From: a phage
Sequence record: PZ809289.1
Reading direction: 5' to 3' (one strand)
DNA: 64,000 bases
Shown here: in pieces, positions 1 to 59,843 of the stretch
Position numbering within the stretch: position 1 is the stretch's first letter
Layout: each line of letters begins with the position of its first letter
Made by a program: the position numbers and the translations under genes
The notes under the pieces: generated by a model
The model's database searches: none
What the model saw: the letters and a program-made list of their open reading frames with translations, nothing else
What the model was told of the DNA's origin: nothing

Positions 1-311
1 AAGCCGAACAACTTTTTAACAGGTCGGTTGAAAATGCTCGTAGAGCTATTCTGCGTAATCCTAAATTGAAACCTGTTTATGATGTACTGGACGAAGTTCG
101 TCGTTGTGCTTTAATTAACATGGTATTCCAAATGGGTGAAGCAGGTGTAGCTGGGTTCACTAACTCTTTACGTATGCTCCAACAGAAACGTTGGAATGAT
201 GCGGCAGTTAACCTGGCTCAATCCCGTTGGTATAAACAAACCCCTAATCGTGCTAAGCGCGTGATTTCTACATTTAAAACAGGTACTTGGAAAGCATATG
301 AAAACTTATAA
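1..311 (+). CDS. e: Endolysin (T4-type lysozyme), C-terminal part; 5' end outside window
   Basis: Frame open from window edge; ...[49 protein letters not shown]...[20 protein letters not shown] matches the T4 lysozyme C-terminus nearly residue for residue. Confidence 0.95.
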
Positions 312-696
312 TGAATTTATCGCAGAGAATGTAATTCCTGCATCTAAAGAACTTTTGGCAATGTTCGAATCTGAAGAGTTCACTGAAGAACTGAATGAGA
401 ATCTGACCCAGGCCACTCCTCAGGTTATTCGCGTTCGTAATGCCCTTCAGACAGGCATGCAGGCTCGCGTCTCTAAGACTATGAAGCTGGCCTTCACCAC
501 TTCTAAAAATGAAGACTACGGTGATGGTATTGCAATGAACACTGGACAGTATTATGTTGAGTGGAATGGCGAAACCGGTACTGCTAAGATTCGCCAAACC
601 AGAGCAGCGGGTGGTAAAATGTTGGACATTAAACTGAACGTTAAAGAGAAAGACGTCGCGGCTTTGTTCAAGAATTGGATGAAGACCTATAAATAA
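298..696 (+). CDS. Internal head protein-like (132 aa) with capsid-targeting sequence
   Basis: N-terminus [10 protein letters not shown] = T4 internal-protein CTS (prohead protease cleaves after E); start overlaps e stop. Confidence 0.8.
688..695 (+). promoter_or_regulatory. T4-type late promoter box TATAAATA
   Basis: Exact TATAAATA overlapping the stop of the preceding ORF, upstream of internal-protein gene 779. Confidence 0.5.
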
Positions 697-725
697 GTTT
701 ACATCTCCTAGAATTGTGATAGTAT
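697..725 (+). promoter_or_regulatory. Early promoter-like element (GTTTAC -35, 17-bp spacer, TAGTAT -10)
   Basis: GTTTAC 697-702, hexamer 720-725; member of repeated cassette family. Confidence 0.5.
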
Positions 726-778
726 ATCTACAGTTACTTGAACAGACCAATTAAAATATTTTCCTTTAAGGAACCCGT

Positions 779-1375
779 ATGAAAACGTATAAAGAATTTA
801 TCGCCGAAGCTTCTGTAGGAAAGGTCCAAGGCATTAATAAAGATGAGTGGACTTACAAAGGAAACGGCGTTGACAACCCAGGAAACGGTTTTGACGCTAA
901 AACAGCTCCTATTGAACGGTACTTGGCTACAAAAGCTTCCGACTTTAAAGCTTTCGCCTGGGAAGGACTTCGCTGGCGTAACGACCTAAATATTGAAGCT
1001 GATGGACTTAAATTTGCCCATATCCAAGATGTTGTTGCTAGTAACTTGGACGCAGCTTTTGTTAAAGCTGACGGTGACCTTCGTCGCTGGAATTTAAAAC
1101 TGTTCTCTAAACAGAAAGGTCCTGTATTTGTACCTAAAGCAGGTAAATGGACTATTGATAATAAATTGGCTAAAGCAGTTAACTTCGCTGGTCTTGAATT
1201 TGCCAAGCATAAATCCGCATGGAAAGGTCTTGATGCAATGACTTTCCGTAAAGAATTTGCCGATGTTATGGCTAAAGGCGGCTTTAAGGCAGAAATAGAT
1301 ACCTCTAAAGGTACGTTTAAAGACGCTAATATTCAGTACGCTTACGCCGTTGCTAATGCAGCCCGTGGTAATTAA
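779..1375 (+). CDS. Internal head protein-like (198 aa) with capsid-targeting sequence
   Basis: N-terminus MKTYKEFIAEA; RBS AAGGAA upstream. Confidence 0.8.
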   Translation: MKTYKEFIAEASVGKVQGINKDEWTYKGNGVDNPGNGFDAKTAPIERYLATKASDFKAFAWEGLRWRNDLNIEADGLKFAHIQDVVASNLDAAFVKADGDLRRWNLKLFSKQKGPVFVPKAGKWTIDNKLAKAVNFAGLEFAKHKSAWKGLDAMTFRKEFADVMAKGGFKAEIDTSKGTFKDANIQYAYAVANAARGN

Positions 1376-1399
1376 TAAAGCCGATACTTGATAAAAGTT

Positions 1400-1428
1400 G
1401 TTTACATCTCCTGTAGTCATGATACTAT
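1400..1428 (+). promoter_or_regulatory. Early promoter with stem-loop (PeSL-like cassette) upstream of denV
   Basis: GTTTAC 1400-1405, TG-extended -10 TACTAT 1423-1428; 12-bp perfect inverted repeat 1406-1417/1439-1450 pairs the spacer with the SD GGAG of denV. Confidence 0.6.
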
Positions 1429-1455
1429 AGACCTATCAACTACAGGAGATTAAAA

Positions 1456-1863
1456 ATGACTCGTATCAACCTTACCTTAGTATCTGAATTGGCTGACCAA
1501 CACTTAATGGCTGAATATCGTGAATTACCACGTGTTTTCGGTGCAGTTCGTGAACGTATTGCCAAAGGGCAAGGCTTCTCTGATATCCCTAAAGACTTCC
1601 GCCTTGGTTCAGGGCACGTCAAGTTCTTTTATGACAAAATTGGTTTTTTGTTCTTGCGACAAAATGCAATAATTGAGGAACTTCTGAAGCGTGGTTACCA
1701 GATTCAAAATACCCATGTAGACGTAGCGGATATTCCATTACGGCTTATGAACGATTTCACTCCAACCGAAGCTGATATAGCTTTAAGCCAAGCTCGTCTG
1801 GATGAAAAAATTGCACAGCGTCCTACCTGGTACAAACATTATGGCAAGGCTATTTACGCTTAA
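1456..1863 (+). CDS. denV: Endonuclease V, pyrimidine-dimer DNA glycosylase
   Basis: [31 protein letters not shown]...[15 protein letters not shown] is near-identical in ends and length to T4 DenV. Confidence 0.95.
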
Positions 1864-1906
1864 TTAAATCCGTGATAGAATACTTCTATCAACTTAAGGA
1901 ATAACA

Positions 1907-2206
1907 ATGAAAACTTATCAAGAATTTATCACAGAAGCCAAAGCTCCTAAAGCATTTCAAATTGGAGTTCAAGGCAATTTAGACCAAGAATATGTTGATG
2001 CTATTGTAGCAAGCCTCGGTAAACAGGGCGTACAAGTCGATTTTGTTGATTTTACCAAAGGTAATACTTTTAATATTGTTACATCTAAAGGTTCTTTAGC
2101 TAAAGTTAAAAAGGCCTTTGGCGTAGCACAAGCATATGAAATCGACCACTCCGAATTAGAAAATAAAGGTCGCCAGAACACAATTAGAGGTTCTGGTTCT
2201 TTCTAA
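1907..2206 (+). CDS. Internal head protein-like (99 aa) with capsid-targeting sequence
   Basis: N-terminus MKTYQEFITEAK; RBS AAGGAA. Confidence 0.8.
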   Translation: MKTYQEFITEAKAPKAFQIGVQGNLDQEYVDAIVASLGKQGVQVDFVDFTKGNTFNIVTSKGSLAKVKKAFGVAQAYEIDHSELENKGRQNTIRGSGSF

Positions 2207-4396: not shown

Positions 4397-4425
4397 GTTT
4401 ACATCTCCTGTAGGTATGATACTAT
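4397..4425 (+). promoter_or_regulatory. Early promoter with stem-loop (PeSL-like) upstream of regB
   Basis: GTTTAC 4397-4402, TACTAT 4420-4425, CCTATCAAC box, inverted repeat ATCTCCTGTAG/CTACAGGAGAT around the SD. Confidence 0.6.
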
Positions 4426-4453
4426 AAACCTATCAACTACAGGAGATTACAAA

Positions 4454-4912
4454 ATGTCAGAAATTAATTCAGAAGTATTCATCCGCCGCAACAAATTACG
4501 TCGTCAGTTCGAAACCGAATTCCGTGAACTGAATGCGTCCATCAAAAAAGCCGCCATTAAGAGCGGAGTCCCAGCCTTCTTTATTAAGTACTCTAATCAC
4601 TTGTTGGACCGTGCTATCCAACGTGAAATCGACGAAAAATACGTTTTTGCTTTATTCAAGCAACTCCATAACCATGTTAAAGAAATTCATGAATTTTTAA
4701 TCCAGGAACCTCTACCTGATGTAGAATCCGAAATTGTCCCTGGTAAAGTGTATCGTCCATTGCGTCTCGAAATTACCGATAAAACCTTATGGCTAGGTAT
4801 GACAGTAGACCGTAAACATCCTGATAAAGGATACTCATTAAAATGTCGTATGGCATTTGTTAACTCTAAACGTTTAGAAGGTAAAACCAGCACGAAAGTA
4901 ATCTATCTTTAA
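4454..4912 (+). CDS. regB: RegB sequence-specific endoribonuclease
   Basis: MSEINSEVFIRRNKLRRQFETEFRELN...HLLDRAIQREIDEKYVF...LEITDKTLWLG closely matches T4 RegB (about 152 aa). Confidence 0.9.
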   Translation: MSEINSEVFIRRNKLRRQFETEFRELNASIKKAAIKSGVPAFFIKYSNHLLDRAIQREIDEKYVFALFKQLHNHVKEIHEFLIQEPLPDVESEIVPGKVYRPLRLEITDKTLWLGMTVDRKHPDKGYSLKCRMAFVNSKRLEGKTSTKVIYL

Positions 4913-6660: not shown

Positions 6661-7398
6661 ATGGCAAAGGAATTCCATTATAATTACTTGACTGTAATAA
6701 AAACCCATAAGGCAAATTATTACTATGTAGGTAAACACTCCACTGATAATCTTTCAGACGGGTATTATGGAAGTGGTACGGTAGTTAAAAATATTTGTAA
6801 AAAGCATCCTTATAAAACTCGTATATTAGAATTCTTCGAATCTGAAGAAGAGGCGTATGCCGCCGAAATTCCTTTAGTTGAAAAGGCTAAATTAAAATAT
6901 GGTAAGCATTCTTTAAATTTTGCTGATGGCGGAAGAGGTAAAAAGAAAGGAACCAAATTATCTAATTTAACTAAACAGAAAATGTCTAGGTCTAGAAAAG
7001 GAGTTAAATGGAGCAAAGCCAGAATAGAAGCTTCTAAATTCACCACTTCTAATAAAGGTTTAAACCATTATTCCAATAGAATAGGATTTAGTGATGAGCA
7101 TAAAGCTAAAATAGGATTAGCCTCTAAAAAATTAAAAGGATTTAAACATAGCGCTGAAACCATAGAAAATATGAGTAACGCCAAAAAGGGCAAAAAGAAT
7201 CCCATGTACGGTAAAAAGGGCGCTATGGCAGGAAAACCTTCTCCTATAAGAAACGAATCTTGGAAATTTTACGATGAATTAAAACTCTTATGGGAAGAAT
7301 CCAATAAGCCTTCAGCATATATGTTTAAAAAGATAGCTATAAGCAAAGGTTATCCTAATTGCTCTTATAGAGGAGTTGTATTTAAATGGCAAGCTTGA
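6661..7398 (+). CDS. GIY-YIG homing endonuclease (Seg-like) with NUMOD3-type repeats
   Basis: YNYLTVIKTHKANYYYVGKHS GIY-YIG core; repeated NPMYGKKG-type motifs; inserted just upstream of tk. Confidence 0.75.
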   Translation: MAKEFHYNYLTVIKTHKANYYYVGKHSTDNLSDGYYGSGTVVKNICKKHPYKTRILEFFESEEEAYAAEIPLVEKAKLKYGKHSLNFADGGRGKKKGTKLSNLTKQKMSRSRKGVKWSKARIEASKFTTSNKGLNHYSNRIGFSDEHKAKIGLASKKLKGFKHSAETIENMSNAKKGKKNPMYGKKGAMAGKPSPIRNESWKFYDELKLLWEESNKPSAYMFKKIAISKGYPNCSYRGVVFKWQA

Positions 7399-9000: not shown

Positions 9001-9005
9001 TCAAA

Positions 9006-9031
9006 GGTCTCACTTCGGTGGGACCTTTTTT
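9006..9031 (+). terminator. Rho-independent terminator (8-bp stem, UUCG tetraloop, U6)
   Basis: GGTCTCAC-TTCG-GTGGGACC followed by TTTTTT. Confidence 0.8.
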
Positions 9032-9040
9032 CGTTTAGGT

Positions 9041-9069
9041 GTTTACATCCTCTAGGAACATGATACTAT
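9041..9069 (+). promoter_or_regulatory. Early promoter (PeSL-like)
   Basis: GTTTAC 9041-9046, TG-extended TACTAT 9064-9069, CCTATCAAC box. Confidence 0.6.
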
Positions 9070-9097
9070 AGACCTATCAACTAATGAGGAGAACAGT

Positions 9098-9334
9098 ATG
9101 AAACTTACAAGTACTACGGTTTCATTAGAATATGAAATCAACGGTCGTATCCTTGAGATTAAGATATTCGACGACCGAAGTATCTTCGCTGATTATCGAG
9201 GATACAGAATTCGTCTAGAAAAGGACGAGCTCAAGGAACCGTGGCTCCTTAAAGACACATTAAAGGGTTGTGGATGTAAACTGAATACTACTCAAGCCCA
9301 AGAATTAATTTCTACTATCAACAAATACTGGTGA
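9098..9334 (+). CDS. Hypothetical protein (78 aa)
   Basis: RBS GAGGAG; first gene after promoter. Confidence 0.55.
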   Translation: MKLTSTTVSLEYEINGRILEIKIFDDRSIFADYRGYRIRLEKDELKEPWLLKDTLKGCGCKLNTTQAQELISTINKYW

Positions 9335-11888: not shown

Positions 11889-12077
11889 ATGAAGGTCTTT
11901 TTATCATATGGAAGACCCCATAAAACCCGACGTTGGTATCTTGAAGCTGTCTGTAAAGAAACCGGACGTCGAGTCAATATCAAGTACGTGTGCAAACCTA
12001 CGCCTAAACAGACAAGACAATTTGTTAACTGGGCTATAAATGATATACGCTTCCATAATTTTTGGAGCGCAATTTAG
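11889..12077 (+). CDS. Hypothetical basic protein (62 aa)
   Basis: ORF between NTase gene and terminator; track start 11835 overlaps upstream gene. Confidence 0.4.
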   Translation: MKVFLSYGRPHKTRRWYLEAVCKETGRRVNIKYVCKPTPKQTRQFVNWAINDIRFHNFWSAI

Positions 12078-12098
12078 GAACCTTCGGGTTCCTTTTTT
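12077..12098 (+). terminator. Rho-independent terminator (GGAACC-UUCG-GGUUCC-U6)
   Basis: Perfect 6-bp stem, UUCG loop, T6. Confidence 0.8.
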
Positions 12099-12118
12099 GG
12101 GTTTAGTGCAAAAAAAGA

Positions 12119-12147
12119 GTTTACACCTTCGTAGAGCATGTTATTAT
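12119..12147 (+). promoter_or_regulatory. Early promoter (PeSL-like)
   Basis: GTTTAC 12119-12124, TATTAT 12142-12147, GACCTATCAA box. Confidence 0.55.
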
Positions 12148-12172
12148 GGACCTATCAAATCTACTGAGTGAA

Positions 12173-13165
12173 ATGGAGAATATAATGTTAACTATCAAAA
12201 TCAACAAAGGTATCTATCGCGGTAATGTAATCTCCGGTACGTTCATGAGTTCAGGTAAAACCTGGTTCCCTAATAAAATTCATGAATCCGAAGCTCACCT
12301 CGGTGATGGTAAGGTATTTGTACAGATTGATGGTGTTGAACGTGGTGTATGGGTGTTCAAATGTGACGTTGAAATGGAAGGTGCTGAAGCTCCTGCAGTT
12401 GTTACTGAATCCGCTGAAGAAATGAAACATCGCATTAACAAACGTTTTAAAGTAATGAACATGATGACTAGTGGAATCATCGATGGTAAAATTCGTTCCC
12501 TTATCATCTCTGGTGCCGCAGGTATTGGTAAAACATATTCTTTGGATAAAGCATTACAGAATGCCCACGAAAATGAAACTATCGAATATAAATCAATCAA
12601 CGGAAAGATTAGTGGAATCGGTCTTTACGAGCAGCTTTGGAATAACCGCGGCCCTAATAGTGTTCTTCTTATTGATGATGTTGATGTATTCTCTGATATG
12701 GATATCCTGAACCTGTTAAAAGCAGCATTGGATACTGGTGAAAAACGTAAGGTGTGCTGGAGCACTTCAAGTTCTTATCTTGATGATAAAAATATCGATA
12801 AAGAATTTGAGTATGAAGGCACCATCGTGTTCATCACCAACGTTGATATTGACCGTGAATTAGAGCGTGGAACTAAACTTGCTCCACACCTCCAGGCTTT
12901 AGTATCTCGTTCAGTTTACTTAGACCTCGGAGTTCACTCTAACGAAGAGATTATGGTTCGTGTTGAAGACGTTATCCTGTCCACTGATATGATGCAAAAC
13001 CGTGGTCTGACTGATGCCGAGACTTACCAAGCTTTAGCATGGATGAAGGCTAATGTATCTCGTCTTCGTAACGTATCATTACGTACAGCTCTTTATCTGG
13101 CGGACTTCATTGCCACCGATAAAAATGACTGGAGCGAAATCGCTGAAGTTACACTTCTGAAATAA
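12173..13165 (+). CDS. P-loop NTPase (AAA-like ATPase) of unknown role (330 aa)
   Basis: Walker A SGAAGIGKT and Walker B VLLIDDVD; ATG 12146 of the track ORF lies inside the promoter -10, so start moved to 12173 after ACTGAG RBS. Confidence 0.6.
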   Translation: MENIMLTIKINKGIYRGNVISGTFMSSGKTWFPNKIHESEAHLGDGKVFVQIDGVERGVWVFKCDVEMEGAEAPAVVTESAEEMKHRINKRFKVMNMMTSGIIDGKIRSLIISGAAGIGKTYSLDKALQNAHENETIEYKSINGKISGIGLYEQLWNNRGPNSVLLIDDVDVFSDMDILNLLKAALDTGEKRKVCWSTSSSYLDDKNIDKEFEYEGTIVFITNVDIDRELERGTKLAPHLQALVSRSVYLDLGVHSNEEIMVRVEDVILSTDMMQNRGLTDAETYQALAWMKANVSRLRNVSLRTALYLADFIATDKNDWSEIAEVTLLK

Positions 13166-13518: not shown

Positions 13519-13547
13519 GTTTACATCTCCAGTAGAAATGATACTAT
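13519..13547 (+). promoter_or_regulatory. Early promoter with stem-loop (PeSL-like)
   Basis: GTTTAC 13519-13524, TACTAT 13542-13547, CCTATCAAC, inverted repeat TCTCCAGTAG/CTACTGGAG. Confidence 0.6.
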
Positions 13548-13573
13548 AGACCTATCAACTACTGGAGGTTAAC

Positions 13574-14098
13574 ATGAACGCTAAAGATATTTTTTCACTC
13601 ATCAATTATAACAATGGTAATTTCAAATCCGAAAAACAAAGCAAGTTCTTTAACGACGTTGCTTGTGGTAATGAGATTACTGTATCTGGAGGAGAGATTT
13701 ACAAAAGCCGTTGGAACTGGATTGTTGTCATCGATTCAGTTGGTATTGTAGAGCTCTATAAAAACACTAACAAAAAACGTACTCTTCACTGGAGTCGTGA
13801 AACCAATCAAGCTTATCAAGCTGAACGTAACAAACGTTTAATGCCTACCGAATCTGACCTGGCAAACGTTAAATCTGATATCGCTTATTTCGATAATCTG
13901 ATTGCTGAACAACAAGCAGTTATTGATAAGTTTGACGAAATCAAAGCTTGTAAAGAGATTCCTGAATTTATGCGGGAATCAGTAAACGAACAGTACGCCC
14001 TCACTTCAGGTCGTATCGAGCAGTACAAATCACAACGAGCTGAACGCCAAGCTCTGCTTCATAAATTTGAAGAGCGTTTAAAGACGGTTCTCGCATAA
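13574..14098 (+). CDS. Hypothetical protein (174 aa)
   Basis: ORF after promoter; SD inside hairpin 3' arm. Confidence 0.55.
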   Translation: MNAKDIFSLINYNNGNFKSEKQSKFFNDVACGNEITVSGGEIYKSRWNWIVVIDSVGIVELYKNTNKKRTLHWSRETNQAYQAERNKRLMPTESDLANVKSDIAYFDNLIAEQQAVIDKFDEIKACKEIPEFMRESVNEQYALTSGRIEQYKSQRAERQALLHKFEERLKTVLA

Positions 14099-16094: not shown

Positions 16095-16124
16095 GTTTAC
16101 ATCCAAGGATGGATGGAGTATAAT
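16095..16124 (+). promoter_or_regulatory. Early promoter-like element (GTTTAC, 18 bp, TATAAT)
   Basis: GTTTAC 16095-16100, TATAAT 16119-16124. Confidence 0.55.
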
Positions 16125-16150
16125 CTTTTAAATCTACTGAGGAGAATATC

Positions 16151-17161
16151 ATGACTCGTACTGAATACATCAATGCCTTTACTACGTATATCACTACCAA
16201 CACCCCTCCGTTAACCCCATACGAGGTAATAGTTTCTAATATCAATAAATGGGTCGACCAAATTGATGATGCATTATCGCGCTGTTTCAAAGCTGAAATC
16301 GAAAAGATTGCAGGCCGTTTGTGCATTCATGATATCATTAAAACATTTAAAGGTTCTCGACTGCTTTCGCGCCTGGTCAATAAGGACATCCTTTCTGAGT
16401 TCGGTAAAGAGAAATATCCAGGTTCCAACCGTGTTGTTAACTACAAATGGTTTGGTGATACCATAAAAGGTTATATCAAAATTAAAGGTATGGACCCTAA
16501 TAGTTTATTTCCGCAACGTTGGGTTAGCGAATTCAAGGCTAACTCTGCATTAATTCTCAAAGCGGCCTCTAAAACTATAGTTTCCGGTGATTGTCGTACT
16601 ATTCACCCGATGGCTAATTGCATGATTAAAACAAATAGTTATAAAGGAAAAGCTATTATTTCTGTTATTTGGTCACCTAATAGGAAACCTAAAGATGATG
16701 TGGAAGTTGTAAAGTATCAAGATATTGCTTACGATACCTTGAATACTATCGAACAAGCTTTAGCTCTGATGGATACCGTAGAGAAATATGAGACCCAAGA
16801 AGTTAAACACCACTTAGGCTGGAAAGGATATGAAGTCTTAGTAACAGTCCGTGAAATCAAATGTACCGTTCCAAAAACTGATGCTGAAATTTACAAAGAA
16901 AAATGTGAGGAAATTGTGAACACTGATAAAGAGCCTGCTACATTAGAAGATTTGATTAACGACTTGAACAGCCCTATCATGGCCCCTACACCAATTACTA
17001 AATCCAAGTTACCGGAAGTCGTTGCCTTGGAAAAAGCGTATAAAGACGCCCTTGCTATCAACAAAAAACTGGCCGGGCAATATACTGCTGCCAAGAAACT
17101 TTGGGAAGAGTCTACCAATCGTTTAGACCGTCTTGAACAAGCTCTGGAGCTGTTGAAATGA
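16151..17161 (+). CDS. Hypothetical protein (336 aa)
   Basis: RBS ACTGAGGAG. Confidence 0.55.
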   Translation: MTRTEYINAFTTYITTNTPPLTPYEVIVSNINKWVDQIDDALSRCFKAEIEKIAGRLCIHDIIKTFKGSRLLSRLVNKDILSEFGKEKYPGSNRVVNYKWFGDTIKGYIKIKGMDPNSLFPQRWVSEFKANSALILKAASKTIVSGDCRTIHPMANCMIKTNSYKGKAIISVIWSPNRKPKDDVEVVKYQDIAYDTLNTIEQALALMDTVEKYETQEVKHHLGWKGYEVLVTVREIKCTVPKTDAEIYKEKCEEIVNTDKEPATLEDLINDLNSPIMAPTPITKSKLPEVVALEKAYKDALAINKKLAGQYTAAKKLWEESTNRLDRLEQALELLK

Positions 17162-20085: not shown

Positions 20086-20114
20086 ATTTACTTCCTCTCC
20101 TCACGTGTTATAGT
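20086..20114 (+). promoter_or_regulatory. Early promoter variant with stem-loop (PeSL-like)
   Basis: ATTTAC 20086-20091, TATAGT 20109-20114, CCTATCAAC box; 13-bp near-perfect inverted repeat pairing spacer with SD GAGGAG. Confidence 0.5.
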
Positions 20115-20143
20115 CTATCCTATCAACACATGAGGAGAACATT

Positions 20144-20326
20144 ATGACTATCCAAGATAAAGAAATTAAAGCCGACCAGTATTATTCAGTAAATGGCTAC
20201 CCTGTTCAAGTAACAAAGGTAACAAATCTCGATGTATGGTATCAACCTTTGACTCACCCTGATGCTCCATTGATGGTGTGTGACCGTTCTTTATTTTGTT
20301 CAGTAGCTAAGGAAATTAAATCATGA
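20144..20326 (+). CDS. Hypothetical protein (60 aa)
   Basis: RBS GAGGAG. Confidence 0.5.
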   Translation: MTIQDKEIKADQYYSVNGYPVQVTKVTNLDVWYQPLTHPDAPLMVCDRSLFCSVAKEIKS

Positions 20327-21012: not shown

Positions 21013-21213
21013 ATGAATCCTGAATCTAAATTATCACAGCGAATTGCTGAAGCTCGTCGTCAGTTCTTTGAAAATATGATAGCCCAAGGTATTGATGACG
21101 AAGTTTTTCTGAACTGGTTTTGGAACCACAAATATTCAAGTTGTTCAGGCGCTTTATTAATTTCAGCTGCATCTATGTACGAAGGCTGGAAAGGTGCAAT
21201 GAGTCAAAAATAG
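21013..21213 (+). CDS. Hypothetical protein (66 aa)
   Basis: TAAATG coupling. Confidence 0.45.
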   Translation: MNPESKLSQRIAEARRQFFENMIAQGIDDEVFLNWFWNHKYSSCSGALLISAASMYEGWKGAMSQK

Positions 21214-21242
21214 TTTACAAACTCTTGGGACCAGAGTATAAT
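21213..21242 (+). promoter_or_regulatory. Early promoter-like element (GTTTAC, 18 bp, TATAAT)
   Basis: GTTTAC 21213-21218, TATAAT 21237-21242; GGACC/GGTCC hairpin across -10. Confidence 0.55.
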
Positions 21243-21281
21243 GGTCCTACGGATTATAACTTTAAAACTGAGGAAATTATT

Positions 21282-21611
21282 ATGTCACAAGCTATTAAAA
21301 ACGTACTGAACTCTTTCGCTTTCGATAAAGTAAACGAACTGATGAAAACAGGTTTTGTAACTCCTCAGGTTCTTGACCAATGGGTTGCTGAACTGTTACC
21401 TATCATGCACTCTAAAGACCAGAAAATTGGTAAGAACGGTATTCGTGAAATCCTGGTTCAATATATCCTCGATGAATTCGATGTCGCTGCCTTTGGTGTA
21501 GAATCTAAAGCTTGGTGCCCTGGTGAAATCACGGATAAAACTATCCGTCGTATGAAAAACCAACGTAAGAAAAAATTCGTCGACCTGAAAATTGTTAAGG
21601 CAGCTAAATGA
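21282..21611 (+). CDS. Hypothetical protein (109 aa); leader and first codons shared with ORF 14162
   Basis: RBS ACTGAGGA; N-terminus MSQAI. Confidence 0.55.
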   Translation: MSQAIKNVLNSFAFDKVNELMKTGFVTPQVLDQWVAELLPIMHSKDQKIGKNGIREILVQYILDEFDVAAFGVESKAWCPGEITDKTIRRMKNQRKKKFVDLKIVKAAK

Positions 21612-23982: not shown

Positions 23983-24600
23983 ATGAAATACATCACATAC
24001 CTGACAATATATTCCGGGACTAAGCTTCCACCGTTTTATATAGGGTCTACCACTTTAGAGAAGCATTCAAAAGGATATCACGGGAGTGTCCTTTCTAAAG
24101 CATATAAAGAAATCTATAAAAATGAGCTTTTAGAGCATCCAGAATTATTTGACTCATGTATTGTAAGTGAACACCCTACAAGAGAAGAGGCTTTAGAAGC
24201 TGAAAGAATGTACCAGTTAAGAACGGATGCGGCCCAAAATCCTCTATTCTTTAATAGGGCTGTCGCAGCTCCTAAAGGATTCTTTGGGCTTTCGCTACCT
24301 AAAGAGCAACACCCTCTTTACGGCTCTCATAATGCTAAAGGGTATATTCATTCCTATAATCCTATTACATTAGAACAAACCTTTGCACCTACAGTCCCCG
24401 AAGGATATGTAGAAGGTCGTTCACCTAATTATAAAGCATCTAGTCATAATAAGGGCAGGAAGTGGTATAATAACGGAATAGAACATAAACTGATTAACCC
24501 ATCTAATATTCCTGATGGGTGGGTCAAAGGTAAACTTCCTGGCTCTGCTTCTAAAGCAGCCTCCAAAATGTGGGAACGGATACGTAATGAAAATTCTTAA
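23983..24600 (+). CDS. GIY-YIG homing endonuclease (Seg-like), paralog of 56748
   Basis: MKYITYLTIYSGTKLPPFYIGST GIY-YIG core; NUMOD-like HPLYGSHNAKG; sits where T4 has alpha-gt (between 55 and 47). Confidence 0.75.
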   Translation: MKYITYLTIYSGTKLPPFYIGSTTLEKHSKGYHGSVLSKAYKEIYKNELLEHPELFDSCIVSEHPTREEALEAERMYQLRTDAAQNPLFFNRAVAAPKGFFGLSLPKEQHPLYGSHNAKGYIHSYNPITLEQTFAPTVPEGYVEGRSPNYKASSHNKGRKWYNNGIEHKLINPSNIPDGWVKGKLPGSASKAASKMWERIRNENS

Positions 24601-28433: not shown

Positions 28434-29132
28434 ATGAAATTCTCTAAAGAAACTCTGAACATTCTGAAAAACTTCTCCAGTATTAACCCAGGTATCATGC
28501 TTAAGCCTGGTAACACTATTCTAACTCGTTCAGTAACGGGTGCAAGTTATGGTGAAGCTACTGTAAGCGATACCTTTGATATCGAAGCCGCAATCTATGA
28601 TTTGAACGGCTTCTTAAGTATTCTGTCATTGGTATCTGATAGTGCTGAAGTTTCGGTAAGTGAAGACCAAACCACCTTAATTATTAAAGACCAACGTTCA
28701 ACTATTAAATGGCCTATTGCCGACCCAAGTACAATTGCATTCCCAAGCAAAGCTATTCCATTCCCGGTGGCTGAAGTTATTTTTGACCTTAAAGCCGAAG
28801 ATTACCAACAGTTGATGCGTGTGTCCTCTGGATTGAGTATTGATACATTTGCTATCACTGTAGACAACGGTAAAATTGTAATCAATGGCTACAAACAAGT
28901 TGATGATAAGGACCTGGCACGTCCATTGTATTCCTTAGTGGTTGCAGACCATGATGGTCCTGAATTCAAATTCATTATCAACAAAACTAATATGAAAATG
29001 ATGCCTGCCGATTACCATGTATTGTTATGGGCTCGTGGTGAAGGTCAGGACGCTCGTTTCGCAGCCAAGTTTGAAGGTTCACAAGCTTCTTATGTATTGG
29101 CTATGGAAGCAGGCTCAAGCCACTCGTTCTAA
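28434..29132 (+). CDS. 45: Sliding clamp gp45
   Basis: MKFSKETLNILKNFSSINPGIMLKPGNTILTRSVTGASYGEA...AIYDLNGFLSILSLV... collinear with T4 gp45 (about 230 aa). Confidence 0.95.
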   Translation: MKFSKETLNILKNFSSINPGIMLKPGNTILTRSVTGASYGEATVSDTFDIEAAIYDLNGFLSILSLVSDSAEVSVSEDQTTLIIKDQRSTIKWPIADPSTIAFPSKAIPFPVAEVIFDLKAEDYQQLMRVSSGLSIDTFAITVDNGKIVINGYKQVDDKDLARPLYSLVVADHDGPEFKFIINKTNMKMMPADYHVLLWARGEGQDARFAAKFEGSQASYVLAMEAGSSHSF

Positions 29133-29710
29133 TGTATATATGTTATCATAATACGATAACCAACACTAAAACCAAGTGTGTCTATCATTATTTTGGTAGA
29201 CACCGTGTTACTGCTGAAGAATACTACGGTACAGGTAAGTTTGTTAAGAAATGCAAACGAGAAAATGCTATTACTCCAGGTCTTTGGGAGTTTTGTGTTG
29301 AAGTTATCCATACAGTGGATACGTTTAAAGAAGCCAAGATTATTGAAGAAGAGCTTGTTAAAGAAGGCATATCAAAATATGGTATCCTTTGTGTTAATAA
29401 GAATCCTGGTGGTGATGGCGGTGTGGATTACCACACCGAAGAATCTAAACGTAAAATGTCAGAAACTAGAACAGGAAAATCAAGAATATTTTCCGAAAGT
29501 CATAAAGAAAATTTAAGTAAACGAGCCAGAAAATACTCTGATGTTTGGTCCGAACCTGTATATTCAAATCTTAAAACCATTTGGCTGGAAACAGGTATGT
29601 TAAAACGCGGACGGTTTAGTACGCTTTTACAAAAATATGGGTATAATTATTCTGCGAATGAATTGAATAAAATTGTTAAACATTTTAATGAGGAAAATAA
29701 TAATGAGTAA
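29132..29710 (+). CDS. GIY-YIG-like homing endonuclease inserted between 45 and 44
   Basis: YICYHNT...VYHYFGRH core like the other Seg-like ORFs; NUMOD-like NPGGDGG...SRIFSESHKENLSKRA; TAATG coupling. Confidence 0.6.
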   Translation: MYICYHNTITNTKTKCVYHYFGRHRVTAEEYYGTGKFVKKCKRENAITPGLWEFCVEVIHTVDTFKEAKIIEEELVKEGISKYGILCVNKNPGGDGGVDYHTEESKRKMSETRTGKSRIFSESHKENLSKRARKYSDVWSEPVYSNLKTIWLETGMLKRGRFSTLLQKYGYNYSANELNKIVKHFNEENNNE

Positions 29711-34624: not shown

Positions 34625-34654
34625 GTTTACATACCACAAGGAACGTGGTAGTAT
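34625..34654 (+). promoter_or_regulatory. Early promoter variant (PeSL-like)
   Basis: GTTTAC 34625-34630, TG-extended TAGTAT 34649-34654, CCTATCAAC box. Confidence 0.5.
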
Positions 34655-34684
34655 CCTTCCTATCAACTACATGAGGAAATTACA

Positions 34685-34921
34685 ATGGAAGCTTTAATCG
34701 TTAGTGCTGGTGTTTTAGGATTCGGTTCTCTGGTTATTATGTTCATCGGTTACTTTTTACCATGGATTCTGGCTCTTCTGCGAGGCACTCGTAGTAATGT
34801 AGGAATTTTCTTCCTTAATCTCCTGTTAGGCTGGACGATGATTGGTTGGGTAGTGGCTTTAATCTGGGCTATCGTCGCTGAACGTAAATCAAACGCACAA
34901 ATCATTATTGTTAAACAATGA
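34685..34921 (+). CDS. imm: Small inner-membrane protein at the T4 imm position (78 aa)
   Basis: Two transmembrane helices; located directly downstream of 43 as T4 imm is; identity by position and topology. Confidence 0.55.
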   Translation: MEALIVSAGVLGFGSLVIMFIGYFLPWILALLRGTRSNVGIFFLNLLLGWTMIGWVVALIWAIVAERKSNAQIIIVKQ

Positions 34922-41346: not shown

Positions 41347-42770
41347 AAACTATTTTGGCTCAACTGCTAGGCAATAGTGATTATTTCACTAAGGTCTGGC
41401 CTTATATGAATGATTCTTATTTTGACCAGGGTCCTGCAAAGACCCTTTTCAAAGAAATTAAAAAACATGTCAATGAATATAATGCAGTGCCTTCTAAGAA
41501 CGCATTGAGCATTGCATTAGATAACAGTACGCTTTCAGAAGTTGAACACCAAGGCGCTAAAGAGCTTTTAAGTTCGCTGAATGCCGGACCTGAAGACCAA
41601 GAATGGTTGGTTAAAGAGACGGAGAAATACGTTCAGAAAGCAGCGATGTATAATGCAACTTCAAAAATCATTGAAATCCAAACTAATGCCGACCTTCCGG
41701 TTGAGCAACAAAATAGAAAACTTCCAGGTATTGGTGCTATTCCAGATATCATGCGTGATGCATTATCGATTTGTTTCGATTCTGAATTAGGTCATGACTG
41801 GATGGATGACTATGAAGAACGATTCAAAAGTTATTCTGATAAAGCACGTAAGGTTCCATTCCGTCTTAATATTCTGAATAAGATTACCAAGGGTGGTGCT
41901 GAGTTTGGTACTGAAAACGTATTGTTGGCAGGAACAAACGTAGGTAAGTCTCTTGGTCTTTGTTCATTGGCTGCTGATTACCTTCAATCTGGTTACGATG
42001 TTCTTTATATCTCCATGGAGATGGCAGAGGAAGTATGTGCTAAGCGTATCGATGCCAACCTTCTGGACGTGTCGCTGGATGATATCGATGATGGTCACGT
42101 CTCGTGGCCTGAATATAAAGCTAAGATGGATAAATGGCGTTCAACTGCTACTTTAGGTCGTTTAAAGATTAAACAGTATCCTACTGGCGGTGCTAATGCC
42201 GATACATTCCGTGCATTATTAAACGAATACAAGCTCAAACAAAACTTTGTCCCTCAGGTTGTTATCGTTGACTACTTGGCTATCTGTGCATCGTCTCGTA
42301 CGAAAGTTTTCTCTGAAAACAGTTACGGATTGATTAAGATGGTCGCCGAAGAACTACGTGGACTTGCAGTAGAGAAGAAATTATTGCTGTGGACAGCAGC
42401 CCAGACTACTCGTGGTGCGAACGTTGCAGCCGAAATCGATATGGCCGATATTGCTGAATCCTTTGGTATTGCACATACTGCAGACTTCATGTTAGGTGTG
42501 GTCGAGACAGAAGAATTTGCTCAAATGGGTATGCAGATGGTTAAGCAGCTTAAATCTCGTTATGGTGATAAGAGCTACTACAACAAATTTAAGATTGGTG
42601 TTAAGAAAGGAAATCAACGTTGGTATGAAGTTGAAGACGATTCCAACCCAGGTCCAGTGAACACGGTACGTGAGGCTACAGGTGAGATGAATCGCCAAGC
42701 CGAGGTCAATCGACAGACGCGTGTTAATAGAAGTGATTTGGACGATTTAGCAGCATCTATCAAATTTTAA
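41331..42770 (+). CDS. 41: Replicative DNA helicase gp41 (DnaB-like)
   Basis: GTG start; MVEVVETILAQLLGNSDYFTKVWPYM... and LAGTNVGKSLGLCSLAADYLQSGYDVLYISMEMAEEVCAKRIDANLLDVSLDDIDDGH match T4 gp41. Confidence 0.95.
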   Translation: MVEVVETILAQLLGNSDYFTKVWPYMNDSYFDQGPAKTLFKEIKKHVNEYNAVPSKNALSIALDNSTLSEVEHQGAKELLSSLNAGPEDQEWLVKETEKYVQKAAMYNATSKIIEIQTNADLPVEQQNRKLPGIGAIPDIMRDALSICFDSELGHDWMDDYEERFKSYSDKARKVPFRLNILNKITKGGAEFGTENVLLAGTNVGKSLGLCSLAADYLQSGYDVLYISMEMAEEVCAKRIDANLLDVSLDDIDDGHVSWPEYKAKMDKWRSTATLGRLKIKQYPTGGANADTFRALLNEYKLKQNFVPQVVIVDYLAICASSRTKVFSENSYGLIKMVAEELRGLAVEKKLLLWTAAQTTRGANVAAEIDMADIAESFGIAHTADFMLGVVETEEFAQMGMQMVKQLKSRYGDKSYYNKFKIGVKKGNQRWYEVEDDSNPGPVNTVREATGEMNRQAEVNRQTRVNRSDLDDLAASIKF

Positions 42771-42790
42771 GGAGCTTCGGCTCCTTTTTT
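42771..42790 (+). terminator. Rho-independent terminator (GGAGC-UUCG-GCUCC-U6)
   Basis: Immediately after gene 41 stop. Confidence 0.8.
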
Positions 42791-42800
42791 GTTTTTAAGG

Positions 42801-42829
42801 GTTTACATCTCCTGTAGGTGTGATACTAT
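42801..42829 (+). promoter_or_regulatory. Early promoter with stem-loop (PeSL-like)
   Basis: GTTTAC 42801-42806, TACTAT 42824-42829, GACCTATCAAC box. Confidence 0.6.
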
Positions 42830-42853
42830 AGACCTATCAACTTGGAGAACAAA

Positions 42854-43171
42854 ATGAAAACCATCGACTGTAAAGCAGAATATAAAGTGTATTATCACGG
42901 AAGTTGTAGTGTTGCTAATATCGGTAATATGCTTTGTCCTCCTGAGGAGACAGGAGTTCTGTCTGAAACTGGTCGTAAGAAAAACCTAAATCGTGTGTTC
43001 TTTACTGAAGATATTGGTTTGGCTAAGATTTATGCTGGACGTGCAGCTCGTTCAGTGGGAGGAGAACCCCGTCTTTATCGTGTAATTGCTCCGGTAGATG
43101 TGGTTTGTTTAAATGATACTAAAGGCGCTACGGTTTATCATGCTGAATGGGCCTTCTGTGAGGAAATCTAA
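42854..43171 (+). CDS. Hypothetical protein (105 aa)
   Basis: RBS GGAG; track start is TTG 42842. Confidence 0.5.
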   Translation: MKTIDCKAEYKVYYHGSCSVANIGNMLCPPEETGVLSETGRKKNLNRVFFTEDIGLAKIYAGRAARSVGGEPRLYRVIAPVDVVCLNDTKGATVYHAEWAFCEEI

Positions 43172-43572: not shown

Positions 43573-43601
43573 GTTTACATCAAAGGGGTAATGTAGTATA
43601 T
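43573..43601 (+). promoter_or_regulatory. Early promoter variant with hairpin (PeSL-like)
   Basis: GTTTAC 43573-43578; 8-bp inverted repeat GGGGTAAT/ATTACCCC across the -10; CCTATCAAC box. Confidence 0.5.
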
Positions 43602-43630
43602 TACCCCTATCAACTACCGAGGAGAACATT

Positions 43631-43924
43631 ATGAAAAAGTTATTAATCGCAGCAATCCTTACAGTAGCATCATGTGGCACAGCTCCAGTTACGGCTGGAT
43701 TGGATAAAGACCTTTGTGAATGGTCTATGACTGCAGACCAAGAATCGGTTGAACATCAGATTTATGCCGATATCATGAACATCACTAAACGCGACCGCCC
43801 TGATATGGCTAAAGAAGTGTCAGACCAATTAGCTTCAGGTGGTGTTATGCAATATAACCGGAATTTGTATTGTGATGCCAATTTCGATAACAAAAATATC
43901 GTTAAAGAGGTGACAGGTGAATAA
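43631..43924 (+). CDS. Predicted lipoprotein (97 aa)
   Basis: Signal sequence MKKLLIAAILTVASCG with lipobox; RBS GAGGAG. Confidence 0.55.
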   Translation: MKKLLIAAILTVASCGTAPVTAGLDKDLCEWSMTADQESVEHQIYADIMNITKRDRPDMAKEVSDQLASGGVMQYNRNLYCDANFDNKNIVKEVTGE

Positions 43925-53689: not shown

Positions 53690-53718
53690 GTTTACTTCTC
53701 CTCATGACATGATACTAT
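53690..53718 (+). promoter_or_regulatory. Early promoter with stem-loop (PeSL-like)
   Basis: GTTTAC 53690-53695, TACTAT 53713-53718, CCCTATCAAC; 11-bp inverted repeat TTCTCCTCATG/CATGAGGAGAA. Confidence 0.6.
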
Positions 53719-53745
53719 CTACCCTATCAACATGAGGAGAACAAA

Positions 53746-54255
53746 ATGAAAATTTATCGAGTGGAGTCATCGTTCAGTATCTTAGATAACAGCGATGTTA
53801 TAGCAATCACTCACCAACAGTGCCGCCAATTAACACCGTATAGAGGCTCGTTTGATGAATGGAGCGAAGGTTGGTTATTAGAAGTAGGTTTCGACAAACC
53901 TAATTTTAGACACCACCATACCAATAATAAAAATATTCCGCTACCAGGTCAAGACAAGTTGTTGGTGGAAAATTCTAATAAAACCATTCGAACTAAGTGG
54001 GGCCAGCCTGATTATGAAGGCTGCGATGATTATATTCCAGGTTGGTTTGTTAATCTCTACCATTTTGCTTTTGCCAGTGAGTATGATATGATGCGCTGGT
54101 TCACTCGTGAAGAGCGTGAAGAATTATCTTCTAAAGGATTCTATCTTGCCGTTTACGAAATCCCTGAAGATGAGGTTGTCATTGGTGGCCGCCAAGTAAT
54201 GTTCCGCAAATCCCATGCTGAACTCGTAGATTTTATTGAATTGAGAACAATATGA
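53746..54255 (+). CDS. Hypothetical protein (169 aa)
   Basis: RBS GAGGAG. Confidence 0.55.
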   Translation: MKIYRVESSFSILDNSDVIAITHQQCRQLTPYRGSFDEWSEGWLLEVGFDKPNFRHHHTNNKNIPLPGQDKLLVENSNKTIRTKWGQPDYEGCDDYIPGWFVNLYHFAFASEYDMMRWFTREEREELSSKGFYLAVYEIPEDEVVIGGRQVMFRKSHAELVDFIELRTI

Positions 54256-54802: not shown

Positions 54803-54831
54803 GTTTACTTTATCGAGAGCCATGTTATAAT
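54803..54831 (+). promoter_or_regulatory. Early promoter with hairpin across -10
   Basis: GTTTAC 54803-54808, TG-extended TATAAT 54826-54831; 9-bp inverted repeat GAGAGCCAT/ATGGCTCTC. Confidence 0.55.
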
Positions 54832-54873
54832 GGCTCTCATGGAGAATAAACTTATTAACCAAGAGAGAAAATT

Positions 54874-55425
54874 ATGATTACTATCGGTGAAATTGTTCGT
54901 GTATCCAAAGAATCTCGCTCAAAAGCCGCGGGTCGTTTTGTTGAAGTTGCTGGTATTCGTACTAATTTAGTAGGTGGAATTAAAGAAGTTAAAGTGCGTA
55001 TTATTCCTAAAAATGGCCAGACTGAAACTCAATTCGCTTATGTGCATCCTAAATTCCTGGAATCAACTGAATTCACTGGACACATCGCTCCTGTAGTTGA
55101 AGAAGTTGAATCCCATGATGGGTATGTATGTGAAAGCAATGATATCCGTGGCGTAGTAGCTCAAGACGTTGAAACTATTGACCAATCTCATGTTGGTGTT
55201 GATTTCAAATGGAAATTAGGTAAAGGTGTCTTTTTCGTTTCACCTAAACCGTTTGAATACAATTGCAAGTATGGTCCGACTTATGAAACCACTAGTATGT
55301 CCGGTTACATCACAGACCAATGGGTTGAAGAAGGTGTTAAGCTGTATAACATCGTGTTCCTTGGCACCTTTAAAGTAGTTCCTGAAAGTTTTATTGTTGA
55401 GTACGCTGATATTCATTTTGCATAA
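54874..55425 (+). CDS. Hypothetical protein (183 aa), paralog of 54252
   Basis: C-terminus ...SGYITDQWVEEGVKLYNIVFLGTFKVVPES. Confidence 0.55.
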   Translation: MITIGEIVRVSKESRSKAAGRFVEVAGIRTNLVGGIKEVKVRIIPKNGQTETQFAYVHPKFLESTEFTGHIAPVVEEVESHDGYVCESNDIRGVVAQDVETIDQSHVGVDFKWKLGKGVFFVSPKPFEYNCKYGPTYETTSMSGYITDQWVEEGVKLYNIVFLGTFKVVPESFIVEYADIHFA

Positions 55426-55436
55426 AGTTTAAAAAC

Positions 55437-55467
55437 AGTATACAACAGGGTAGTAGTGTGATACTAT
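55437..55467 (+). promoter_or_regulatory. Early promoter variant (PeSL-like)
   Basis: GTATAC at -35 position, TG-extended TACTAT 55462-55467, CCCTATCAAC box. Confidence 0.4.
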
Positions 55468-55497
55468 TACCCTATCAACAAATGAGAGGAAAATAAA

Positions 55498-55716
55498 ATG
55501 GCTAAAGTTACTGTGAACTCGACTCGTGAAGAATTTGAAGATGTTCTGTTCAACCCTGATTTAATCGTGGTTCAAAAGGAACATTCTGATACGTTTTCTC
55601 ATTTATCGTCGGTTTATGTATACGAAAACCAAGGTGATGAAAACCCTATCTATGCGGTGTTCCGTGAAATCACTGCTGAAGGCACCGACTTCTGGAAGGA
55701 AACTTATAATGCTTAA
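55498..55716 (+). CDS. Hypothetical protein (72 aa)
   Basis: RBS GAGAGGAAAA. Confidence 0.5.
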   Translation: MAKVTVNSTREEFEDVLFNPDLIVVQKEHSDTFSHLSSVYVYENQGDENPIYAVFREITAEGTDFWKETYNA

Positions 55717-59472: not shown

Positions 59473-59502
59473 GTTTACAAAGACCCGTGGTTATGATAGG
59501 AT
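59473..59502 (+). promoter_or_regulatory. Early promoter-like element
   Basis: GTTTAC 59473-59478, TG-extended TAGGAT 59497-59502. Confidence 0.45.
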
Positions 59503-59519
59503 TATCTAGAGGTGAGAAT

Positions 59520-59843
59520 ATGATTATGCAAGATAACAGTATAGTGAACACTGACAACCTGGCTCTATCCTTTATGGAAACAGCCATACGAAATTGTAAG
59601 GACGAAGGAATAGTGACTACAAGCGGTAAGGGACTTGAATACCTTAAGGCTGTAAAATCTATTGCCTTAAAGATTAAAGATAACCAGGCGCTCTCTCCTG
59701 TGGTCCAGGAAAAGGTTTTAGAGATAATGTATCGCCACAGAGAGCACAAAAGTACAATGGGTTCTATGAGAAGAATTCTGGCTGAACTAGGTTCTACCAG
59801 AGAATATGTTCAACATGAGGTAGTTAAAAATGACAAACTTTAA
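59520..59843 (+). CDS. Hypothetical protein (107 aa)
   Basis: RBS GAGGTGAG; track start 59487 falls inside promoter. Confidence 0.5.
   Translation: MIMQDNSIVNTDNLALSFMETAIRNCKDEGIVTTSGKGLEYLKAVKSIALKIKDNQALSPVVQEKVLEIMYRHREHKSTMGSMRRILAELGSTREYVQHEVVKNDKL

Follow-up and report, generated by a model that had tools for sequence, protein, structure and literature searches.

Early promoters of bacteriophage T4 carry a GTTTAC -35 hexamer, a TG-extended -10 hexamer and an A-rich upstream region, and the published consensus treats the spacer between the hexamers as non-specific, leaving complementarity to the downstream Shine-Dalgarno (SD) sequence unremarked (PMC1524935, PMC2988021). Here we examine a stretch of phage DNA of 64,000 nucleotides (nt), sequence record PZ809289.1 and hereafter ‘the window’, in which a family of promoter cassettes is dispersed ahead of individual early genes. 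These cassettes resemble T4 early promoters in their hexamers, 17-18 bp spacing, TG extension and position before early genes; in a subset, including the cassette of denV at position 1400, the spacer is complementary to the SD of the gene that follows.

Burial of an SD in long transcripts has been described for several T4 genes. In the long transcripts of e, soc, 49 and I-TevI, a helix takes up the SD and/or AUG, while a promoter located in the sequence of the 5' strand gives rise to a short RNA that is translated; the SD-sequestering hairpin of gene e reduces translation about 100-fold, and silencing of this kind has been reported for soc, 49 and I-TevI (PMC3014915). The predicted folds of the five strongest cassettes in the window have an identical geometry, which presumes that the promoters are used. 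In the T4 cases, however, the proximal promoter is late (TATAAATA) and the silenced RNA is early or middle, whereas here the promoter is of the early, sigma-70 type and the silenced RNA would be anything arriving from upstream, late RNA included; the known cases are also single genes, in contrast to a repeated cassette. The analogy with e and 49 drawn in an earlier sequence-only reading of the window holds for the logic, but not for the promoter class.

Promoter-early stem-loops (PeSLs) have been published for phages RB49 and phi1, and later for PST/T4 and nt-1/KVP40, with JS98 mentioned for the gene 43 region only (PMC2839356, PMC4122927). Their stem-loops occupy five positions (upstream of the -35, over the -35, between the boxes, over the -10, or just before the start site), all of which end ahead of the start site and none of which reaches the SD; the role stated for them is that of a terminator or attenuator, translation is not mentioned, and the elements of the T-even internal-protein (IP) locus are regarded by the PeSL authors as analogues rather than homologues (PMC2839356). 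The proposal of the sequence-only reading that the window's cassettes are PeSL-like fits their composition (dispersed intergenic early promoter, stem-loop, SD and start codon) and, as far as the comparison with JS10 goes, their occurrence in variable regions, where they border inserted, deleted or swapped genes. At least five (1852, 21213, 43573, 54803 and 55438) have a stem-loop at the -10, and five more have a terminator just upstream, both in keeping with published positions. RB49 PeSLs differ in being near-consensus TTGACA promoters with G/C-tract stems, and the likeness fails in stem-loop position and role for the five strong cassettes of the 1400 type, in which the helix extends across the -10 and start site as far as the SD, outside all five published positions.

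Many cassette SDs (GGAGAAYA..) also resemble GGAGRAYARAA, the RegB/S1 site, although that site is a nuclease target defined by sequence, not structure, and structure is reported to block RegB (PMC1702504). The 1400 cassette itself is situated in an IP locus whose gene number and order are unlike those of phage JS10, in line with what is described for IP loci. Repoila and colleagues reportedly described, in 1994, a conserved 5' regulatory region of T-even IP genes in work concerned with IP gene shuffling, apparently without addressing SD occlusion, and a 1986 sequence paper on the 58-65 kb region of T4 is said to have noted potential stem-loops before ipIII, ipII and denV. A full-text literature search did not find early-promoter spacer/SD hairpins described, although prior mention in older T4 papers is possible. 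The device described below extends known T4 biology and does not amount to a novel kind of system; two familiar principles are joined in it, and it is restricted to a subset of cassettes.

A dispersed family of early-promoter cassettes

The pattern GTTTAC-N16-19-TANNAT matches the window at 19 positions, all on the + strand, against 0.99 expected and a maximum of four in 100 shuffles. Tolerating one mismatch in the -35 and requiring a start codon nearby yielded about 23 cassette candidates, which include all 21 sites listed in the sequence-only reading (where at least 20 copies had been claimed) and two more, at 1852 and 20790. The cassettes are co-oriented with, and 11-55 nt ahead of, the start codons of denV, regB, nrdC.x, imm, sp, modA/B, srd and other genes. 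A generic sigma-70 scan gave no excess over shuffled sequence (63, 80 and 64 matches versus about 57, 60 and 55), so that the phage-specific GTTTAC -35 is needed to reveal the family. Hexamers, spacing of 17 +/- 1 bp and placement ahead of early genes are those of T4-type early promoters. In the 25 nt upstream of the -35, where PeSLs have an A+T-rich tract, the mean A+T content is 0.66, compared with 0.61 for the whole window. The dispersed cassette family is real.

Individual copies are less uniform than had been described. Two of the sites listed before have an imperfect -35, ATTTAC at 20086 and, for the one previously placed at 55437, GTATAC at 55438, and the -10 at 43573 is TATATT; the TG extension, likewise ascribed to every copy, occurs in most. 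Nine copies fit the description of a repeated element of 50-60 bp, with an alignment that covers 63 nt and an identity of at least 60% (repeat family D1), whereas the others share only the hexamers, often CTATCAAC, and the SD. BLAST against JS10 produced cross-matches of 42-83 bp, at 80-95% identity, between cassettes at different loci, and within the window the 1400 and 4397 cassettes are 90% identical.

Beyond the promoter, many cassettes contain the octamer CTATCAAC, located over the inferred start site, and a GGAG-type SD. The octamer is present in 16 copies (two expected), 12 of them within cassettes, where it is conserved across the inferred start (at 1433-1440 and in 11 other cassettes). 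Its TATCA and the TGATA within the extended -10 make up an inner helix, and the motif may serve start-site choice, the hairpin or something else. The SD context is typically GAGGAGAAYA.., similar to the RegB/S1 consensus (9041, 12119, 16095, 20086, 42801, 43573, 47115, 49582, 53690). The cassettes are best explained as portable units placed before individual early genes, each joining a T4-type early promoter to a conserved motif over the start site and to a ribosome-binding site of the GGAG type.

Pairing of promoter spacer and Shine-Dalgarno sequence

Five cassettes, which serve denV, regB, nrdC.8, 55.6 and a motB.2-like gene, have a spacer whose opening 11-12 bases are reverse-complementary to the SD region some 33 nt further downstream. 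The order from 1400 to 1458 is GTTTAC ATCTCCTGTAGTCATGA TACTAT AGACCTATCA ACTACAGGAGAT TAAAA ATG, and the example singled out in the sequence-only reading proved exact in pairing and coordinates, ATCTCCTGTAGT at 1406-1417 being perfectly complementary to ACTACAGGAGAT at 1439-1450, which contains GGAG at 1445-1448. The 5' arm of such a cassette is situated between -35 and -10 and is therefore, by geometry, absent from any transcript started at that promoter.

Two RNAs were folded for each cassette: a read-through RNA that begins 20 nt before the -35 and extends 12 nt beyond the start codon, and a local RNA that begins at the inferred start, placed 7 nt downstream of the -10; energies of spacer/leader duplexes were computed separately. 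Spacer/SD duplexes below -17 kcal/mol, taken as strong, were found in five of the 23 cassettes (1400, 4397, 13519, 20086 and 53690), with energies of -17.8 to -19.8 kcal/mol. Between -35 and AUG, their read-through RNAs reach folding energies of -18.9 to -21.1 kcal/mol, with z-scores between -4.8 and -6.5 and no equally stable fold among 200 shuffles, and have a predicted SD helix of 11-17 bp, while the leaders from start to AUG are unstructured (0 to -1.7 kcal/mol). The mean probability that the SD is unpaired is 0.01-0.22 in read-through RNA versus 0.43-0.83 in local RNA. The expected difference between the two transcripts, a buried SD as opposed to an open leader, is thus reproduced by prediction in these five cassettes.

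Several comparisons bear on whether the pairing is selected. In the window, pairing is stronger between cognate than between non-cognate arms (permutation p = 2e-4), and cognate spacers reach -8.4 kcal/mol compared with -4.9 +/- 0.4 for shuffled spacers. Orthologous loci of the five genes were taken from viral contigs and their upstream regions compared. Across 11 distinct spacer-type arms, paralogous and orthologous, the 6 nt beyond the SD/anti-SD core are paired at 4.45 of 6 positions in cognate and 2.61 of 6 in non-cognate combinations (p = 6e-5); examples of such covarying extensions are TGTAGT/ACTACA, GTTTG/CAAAC, TCTTTATG/CATAAAGA and AAG/CTT. The denV orthologues alone display at least ten different arm pairs, some with a spacer-borne 5' arm (TCTCCTGTAG/CTACAGGAGA, TCTCCTGTG/CACAGGAGA, TTCCTCCAAG/CTTGGAGGAA, TCTCCGTTTG/CAAACGGAGA), others in which the 5' arm overlaps the last part of the -10 while the 3' arm extends into the AUG (ATGATGTCTTCC/GGAGGACATCAT, AGTGTTCTC/GAGAACACT, TAGTAGCCT/AGGCTACTA). 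The GGAG core lies under the 3' arm in all of the strong cases. This covariation, an observation on sequence, supports selection for pairing. A set of 28 distinct hairpins contains 17 G-U pairs but a single internal A-C mismatch, a tolerance that favours action in sense-strand RNA rather than DNA, in a count biased by the selection of helices with an energy model that itself favours G-U.

T4 offers a further comparison. Bases 1-76000 of T4, subjected to the same procedure, contain 28 candidate early promoters, and four of the five genes with strong cassettes in the window have a spacer/SD hairpin there too: denV (-19.0), regB (-21.6), nrdC.8 (-22.2) and motB.2 (-17.4, all in kcal/mol). The arms at regB, nrdC.8 and motB.2 differ between T4 and the window, and the T4 denV cassette is almost base-for-base the regB cassette of the window. 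T4 modB has a hairpin of the variant that overlaps the -10, and -10-centred hairpins are found in T4 at ipI, ipII, ipIII, dmd, motB and trna.4. That the feature persists at the same genes while arms differ speaks, as far as sequences can tell, for selection on pairing at these genes in particular, and is the strongest argument that SD occlusion, not a mere hairpin, is what matters there. Judged from the predicted folds, the SD-burying early-promoter device is plausible and apparently conserved.

Coordinates of the denV cassette, its parts, and other cassettes of the window
Coordinates	Strand	Feature	Remarks
1400..1405	+	denV early promoter, -35 hexamer GTTTAC	
1406..1417	+	denV 5' arm ATCTCCTGTAGT	within promoter spacer; includes anti-SD-like CTCC
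1420..1428	+	denV TG-extended -10, TGATACTAT	hexamer 1423-1428
1420-1424 / 1434-1438	+	denV inner helix, 5 bp	TGATA with TATCA
1435	+	denV inferred transcription start	7 nt past -10, inside CTATCAAC (1433-1440); from sigma-70 promoter geometry
1439..1450	+	denV 3' arm ACTACAGGAGAT	SD GGAG 1445-1448; ATG 1456
4397..4456	+	regB cassette	arms 4403-4413 / 4437-4447; ATG 4454; -18.9 kcal/mol, z -4.8
13519..13576	+	nrdC.8 cassette	arms 13525-13535 / 13559-13569, one U-G pair; ATG 13574; -19.3 kcal/mol, z -5.3
20086..20146	+	55.6 cassette, -35 ATTTAC	helix 20096-20109 / 20125-20138; ATG 20144; -21.1 kcal/mol, z -5.7
53690..53748	+	motB.2-like cassette	arms 53696-53706 / 53731-53741; ATG 53746; -19.3 kcal/mol, z -6.5; SD context GGAGAACAAAA
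48960..49015	+	modB cassette, variant	5' arm TGACCTC from -10 end; GAGGTCA spans SD up to ATG 49013
9041..9100	+	cassette with weak SD pairing (CCTC/GAGG) only	intrinsic terminator 9003-9028 precedes
42801..42856	+	cassette with 4397-type 5' arm, non-matching 3' arm	partial pairing, -10.1 kcal/mol; terminator 42769-42786 upstream
1852..1909	+	cassette ATTTAC-18-TAGAAT with CTATCAAC, previously unlisted	hairpin GATAGAA/TTCTATC at -10; internal-protein-like gene follows
21213..21284	+	cassette with hairpin GGGACCA..TGGTCC at -10 only	nearly identical to T4 motB promoter cassette
43573..43633	+	sp (spackle) cassette	hairpin GGGGTAAT..ATTACCCC at -10 only; SD free; classical PeSL-type position
54803..54876	+	cassette with 9-bp hairpin GAGAGCCAT..ATGGCTCTC at -10 only	SD free
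55438..55500	+	cassette with GTATAC -35	hairpin GGGTAGTAGT..ACTATTACCC at -10 only; SD free
16095..16153	+	nrdC.4 cassette	short within-spacer hairpin; SD not buried
34625..34687	+	imm cassette	weak hairpins only
49582..49639	+	modA cassette	weak spacer hairpin; SD free
12076..12187	+	composite of terminator (12076-12093) and promoter (12119)	nrdC.10 next
59473..59522	+	cassette right after terminator-like GGGCC..GGCCC hairpin	SD free
697..781	+	ipIII early promoter	spacer ATCTCC, matching SD arm absent; late motif TATAAATA 688-695 directly upstream
50320..50391	+	srd cassette	no notable hairpin

Most of the family is built differently. Three cassettes (42801, 9041 and 48960) have intermediate or variant spacer/SD pairing, and that at 42801 looks like a chimera in sequence. 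In five others (1852, 21213, 43573, 54803, 55438) a stable hairpin is limited to the -10 region and ends at the start site, leaving the SD free; weaker hairpins of this -10-only group occur at 16095, 34625 and 49582. An intrinsic terminator lies just upstream of 9041, 12119, 42801, 47115 and 59473, and no notable structure was found at 697, 18386, 20790 and 50320. A stem-loop of some kind or an adjoining terminator accompanies about 15 of the 23 cassettes. The statement in the sequence-only reading that many copies carry spacer/SD arms was therefore overstated (about a fifth are strong, with the three intermediate ones in addition), as was its extension to the whole family of 20 or more, most of which leave the SD unburied. 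The exclusion of a 5' arm from the local transcript, as described there, holds for the five strong cassettes, where the arm lies between -35 and -10.

Two terminator hairpins (AGGAACCTTCGGGTTCCTTTTTT), at 12076-12105 and 47082-47111, are 97% identical although 35 kb apart, and both directly precede early promoters (12119 and 47115), so that the terminator-promoter composite is itself repeated. Positions 21213-21250 and T4 7180-7215 are near-identical cassettes, including the GGGACCA/TGGTCC hairpin, that serve different loci (in the window, the gene at 21282).

Genomic setting and the internal-protein locus

The window comprises the early-gene region of a T4-like phage of the JS98/JS10 type (Dhakavirus). 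Its first 12 kb match the Dhakavirus phages WG01, QL01, JS10 and relatives at 92-97% identity, and the T4 early-region gene order is kept (e/ipIII/denV, regB, tk, nrdC, 55, 46/47, 45/44/62, 43, uvsX, 41, modA/B, dda, 39, rIIA/B), with all of these genes encoded on the + strand. An Rfam scan of the window returned no matching family.

Colinear blocks shared with JS10 end at or within cassettes at 696/709, 1389/1400, 12103, 18462/18473, 43564 and 48961. The genes for ipIII and a 132-amino-acid internal-protein-like product have opposite order in the two phages (window 296-1400; JS10 48348-49477), and both junctions of this swap fall exactly at the -35 GTTTAC. Six of about 22 block junctions touch a cassette, which is above a whole-sequence null but inseparable from the tendency of indels to fall in intergenic DNA; because cassettes make up a large share of the scarce intergenic DNA, and whole-gene indels must end there, we do not claim breakpoint enrichment. 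The alignment check suggested by the sequence-only reading has thus located modules flanked by cassettes, with JS10 blocks ending at six of them and a swap bounded by two, while an excess over intergenic indels was not established. The allele of denV (1456-1863) is mosaic: its protein shares 93% identity with that of one group of T4-like contigs, and no more than about 70% with denV of phages in which regB is 100% identical. Together, as judged from these alignments, the JS10 junctions and denV mosaicism fit the picture of cassette-bounded modules drawn for PeSLs and the IP locus.

Six genes in the window open with a common sequence of about 31 nt encoding a MKTY(K/Q)EFI.. leader (296-326, 777-807, 1905-1935, 2309-2339, 2677-2707, 44761-44791). 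This leader is typical of T-even internal, capsid-injected proteins, and five of the six genes surround denV; the IP-like genes at 2311-2670 and 2679-2936 lie within a 731-bp stretch missing from JS10. Three further open reading frames (ORFs), at 6661-7398, 23983-24600 and 29132-29710, are without a JS10 counterpart at these positions; the first contains a NUMOD3 motif, typical of homing endonucleases, and Pfam gave no match for the other two. At 43172-43570, two adjacent small ORFs of 64 and 67 amino acids both match one JS10 stretch, which indicates a tandem duplication beside the dmd region at the level of sequence. The ORF at 55616-56236 has internal tandem repeats at 55951-56175 (93-120 nt each, up to 93% identical), which encode an acidic repeated segment.

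Proposed insulation from read-through RNA and its alternatives

We consider translational insulation from read-through RNA to be the probable, if by no means assured, function of the SD-burying hairpins. RNA started upstream would carry both arms and, once the SD has been transcribed, would adopt a hairpin of about -20 kcal/mol in which the SD is occluded, so that the gene stays untranslated, while RNA from the cassette's own promoter would start in the loop, lack the 5' arm, and present an open leader for translation. Hairpins of this stability over an SD strongly lower initiation. Under such control, denV, regB, nrdC.8, 55.6 and the motB.2-like gene would be expressed only while their own early promoters fire, and the cassette would free gene expression from its upstream context, as would suit elements that are shuffled between loci.

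Read-through into these genes is plausible, because a scan for intrinsic terminators found none upstream of the five strong cassettes and a late motif is present upstream of ipIII; the five terminator-preceded cassettes, for their part, have weak or absent SD pairing. The late motif TATAAATA at 688-695 abuts the early -35 GTTTAC of ipIII, one base apart (688-702), a juxtaposition which suggests that ipIII may be transcribed both early and late. Abundant late ipIII RNA would consequently run into denV, no terminator having been found between the two genes, and there it would fold. The window contains four TATAAATA motifs (688, 8240, 44742 and 46804), none inside a hairpin; those at 8240, 44742 and 46804 are on the + strand ahead of likely late genes, including soc and an IP-like gene.

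A number of observations weigh against SD occlusion as the selected property. SD burial is confined to five, or at most eight, of about 23 cassettes, and hairpins of similar size that end at the -10 or start site, with the SD free, are at least as frequent. In some other phages regB (L087-L089) and nrdC.8 (L104-L106) have a -10-centred hairpin only, and with denV in L022 these are examples of hairpin types swapping at orthologous loci, which hints that selection may act on a stable hairpin in read-through RNA rather than on occlusion. Whole-cassette replacement can generate covariation among paralogues, such that independent compensatory events would be fewer than arm types, and among close relatives variable columns number 5 of 106 in arms and 10 of 116 in loops, variation too slight to make arms clearly the more conserved.

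In the main rival account, unlikely though we judge it, the hairpins are PeSL-type attenuators or RNA-end structures that pause or terminate incoming transcription or, as a 3'-terminal barrier, stabilise upstream mRNA after its cleavage, with SD overlap incidental. The frequency of SD-sparing hairpins and their exchange with SD-burying ones are what it would predict, terminator-preceded cassettes lack strong hairpins as if the two were alternatives, and one RB49-group PeSL stem-loop was found to cut downstream lacZ as strongly as rrnB T1 (PMC2839356). Yet a U-run is missing after all five hairpins (position 1450, for instance, is followed by TAAAAATG), which would make them poor intrinsic terminators, and a hairpin indifferent to position would predict neither the invariable location of the GGAG core under the 3' arm nor the persistence of SD burial in T4, at the same four genes, although arms differ. 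Chance or hitch-hiking, by which C/T-rich spacers happen to complement purine-rich SDs and copies are alike as recent duplicates, might draw on the near-identity of the 1400 and 4397 cassettes and on the CTCC/CCTC-like spacer start of 10 of the 23, which confers generic SD pairing (non-cognate mean -6.5 kcal/mol); covariation beyond the core, z-scores as low as those found, and retention at orthologous genes across genera with different arms leave it disfavoured and highly improbable.

Two further accounts, both of which we regard as improbable, place the effect at other levels. Hairpins might govern decay instead of translation, shielding read-through RNA from RegB while RNA from the cassette's own promoter stays sensitive: regB is encoded in the window (4454-4912), secondary structure inhibits the enzyme, whose S1-dependent target is GGAGRAYARAA (PMC1702504, PMC3014915), and several cassette SDs fit that target, such as GGAGAACAAAA at 53690 and 42801. 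Nevertheless, two SDs deviate from the consensus, that of 4397 by a C in position 9 and that of 13519 by a C in position 10, RNA that is protected yet untranslatable has no obvious use, and protection would accompany SD occlusion instead of replacing it; a RegB-related role could exist alongside occlusion. Alternatively, the inverted repeats could act in DNA, as recombination or cruciform sites in module shuffling or as modulators of promoter opening, RNA pairing being a by-product. The colinearity breaks with JS10, the swapped order of ipIII and its neighbour, the discordant denV allele and the PeSL mini-circles shown in RB49/phi1 (PMC2839356) could all be cited for this, but for homologous exchange the repeats must be direct ones shared between cassettes rather than inverted ones inside a single cassette, cassette breakpoints are not clearly above expectation if indels fall in intergenic DNA, and the hairpins tolerate G-U but not A-C while always placing the SD under the 3' arm.

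Two other processes were considered and rejected. Translational coupling, in which a ribosome terminating upstream opens the hairpin, is disfavoured by the upstream stop codons, which lie 9-31 nt before the 5' arm, so that, inferring from ribosome footprints, at most 1-2 bp would be reached. RNase III processing is disfavoured by helices (11-12 bp plus the 5-bp inner helix) that are shorter than typical substrates of this enzyme.

Building on translational insulation, we put forward more tentatively, and with more doubt than confidence, that translation gated by transcript origin may form a layer of early control that is conserved in T4-like phages and has so far gone unrecognised, in which denV, regB, nrdC.8 and motB.2 (and here 55.6) would be translatable only from RNA of their own promoters, the promoter spacer doubling as the anti-SD strand. 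In combination with early-promoter shut-off and RegB attack on exposed GGAG, such gating would yield a sharp pulse of expression from a self-insulating, portable unit, whose genes could be shuffled free of the expression pattern of new neighbours.

Should the hairpins work as predicted, the promoter of origin would decide whether a cistron on an RNA of a T4-like genome is translated, and the transcript abundance of genes of the denV/regB type would overstate protein output late in infection. This would explain how individual genes are timed in dense, terminator-poor early regions, and would provide a functional reason for promoter cassettes to travel with genes during module shuffling. A promoter with the anti-SD strand in its spacer would also be a compact insulator design for synthetic biology. 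T4, in which the same structures are found at the same genes, is a direct testing ground for these predictions.

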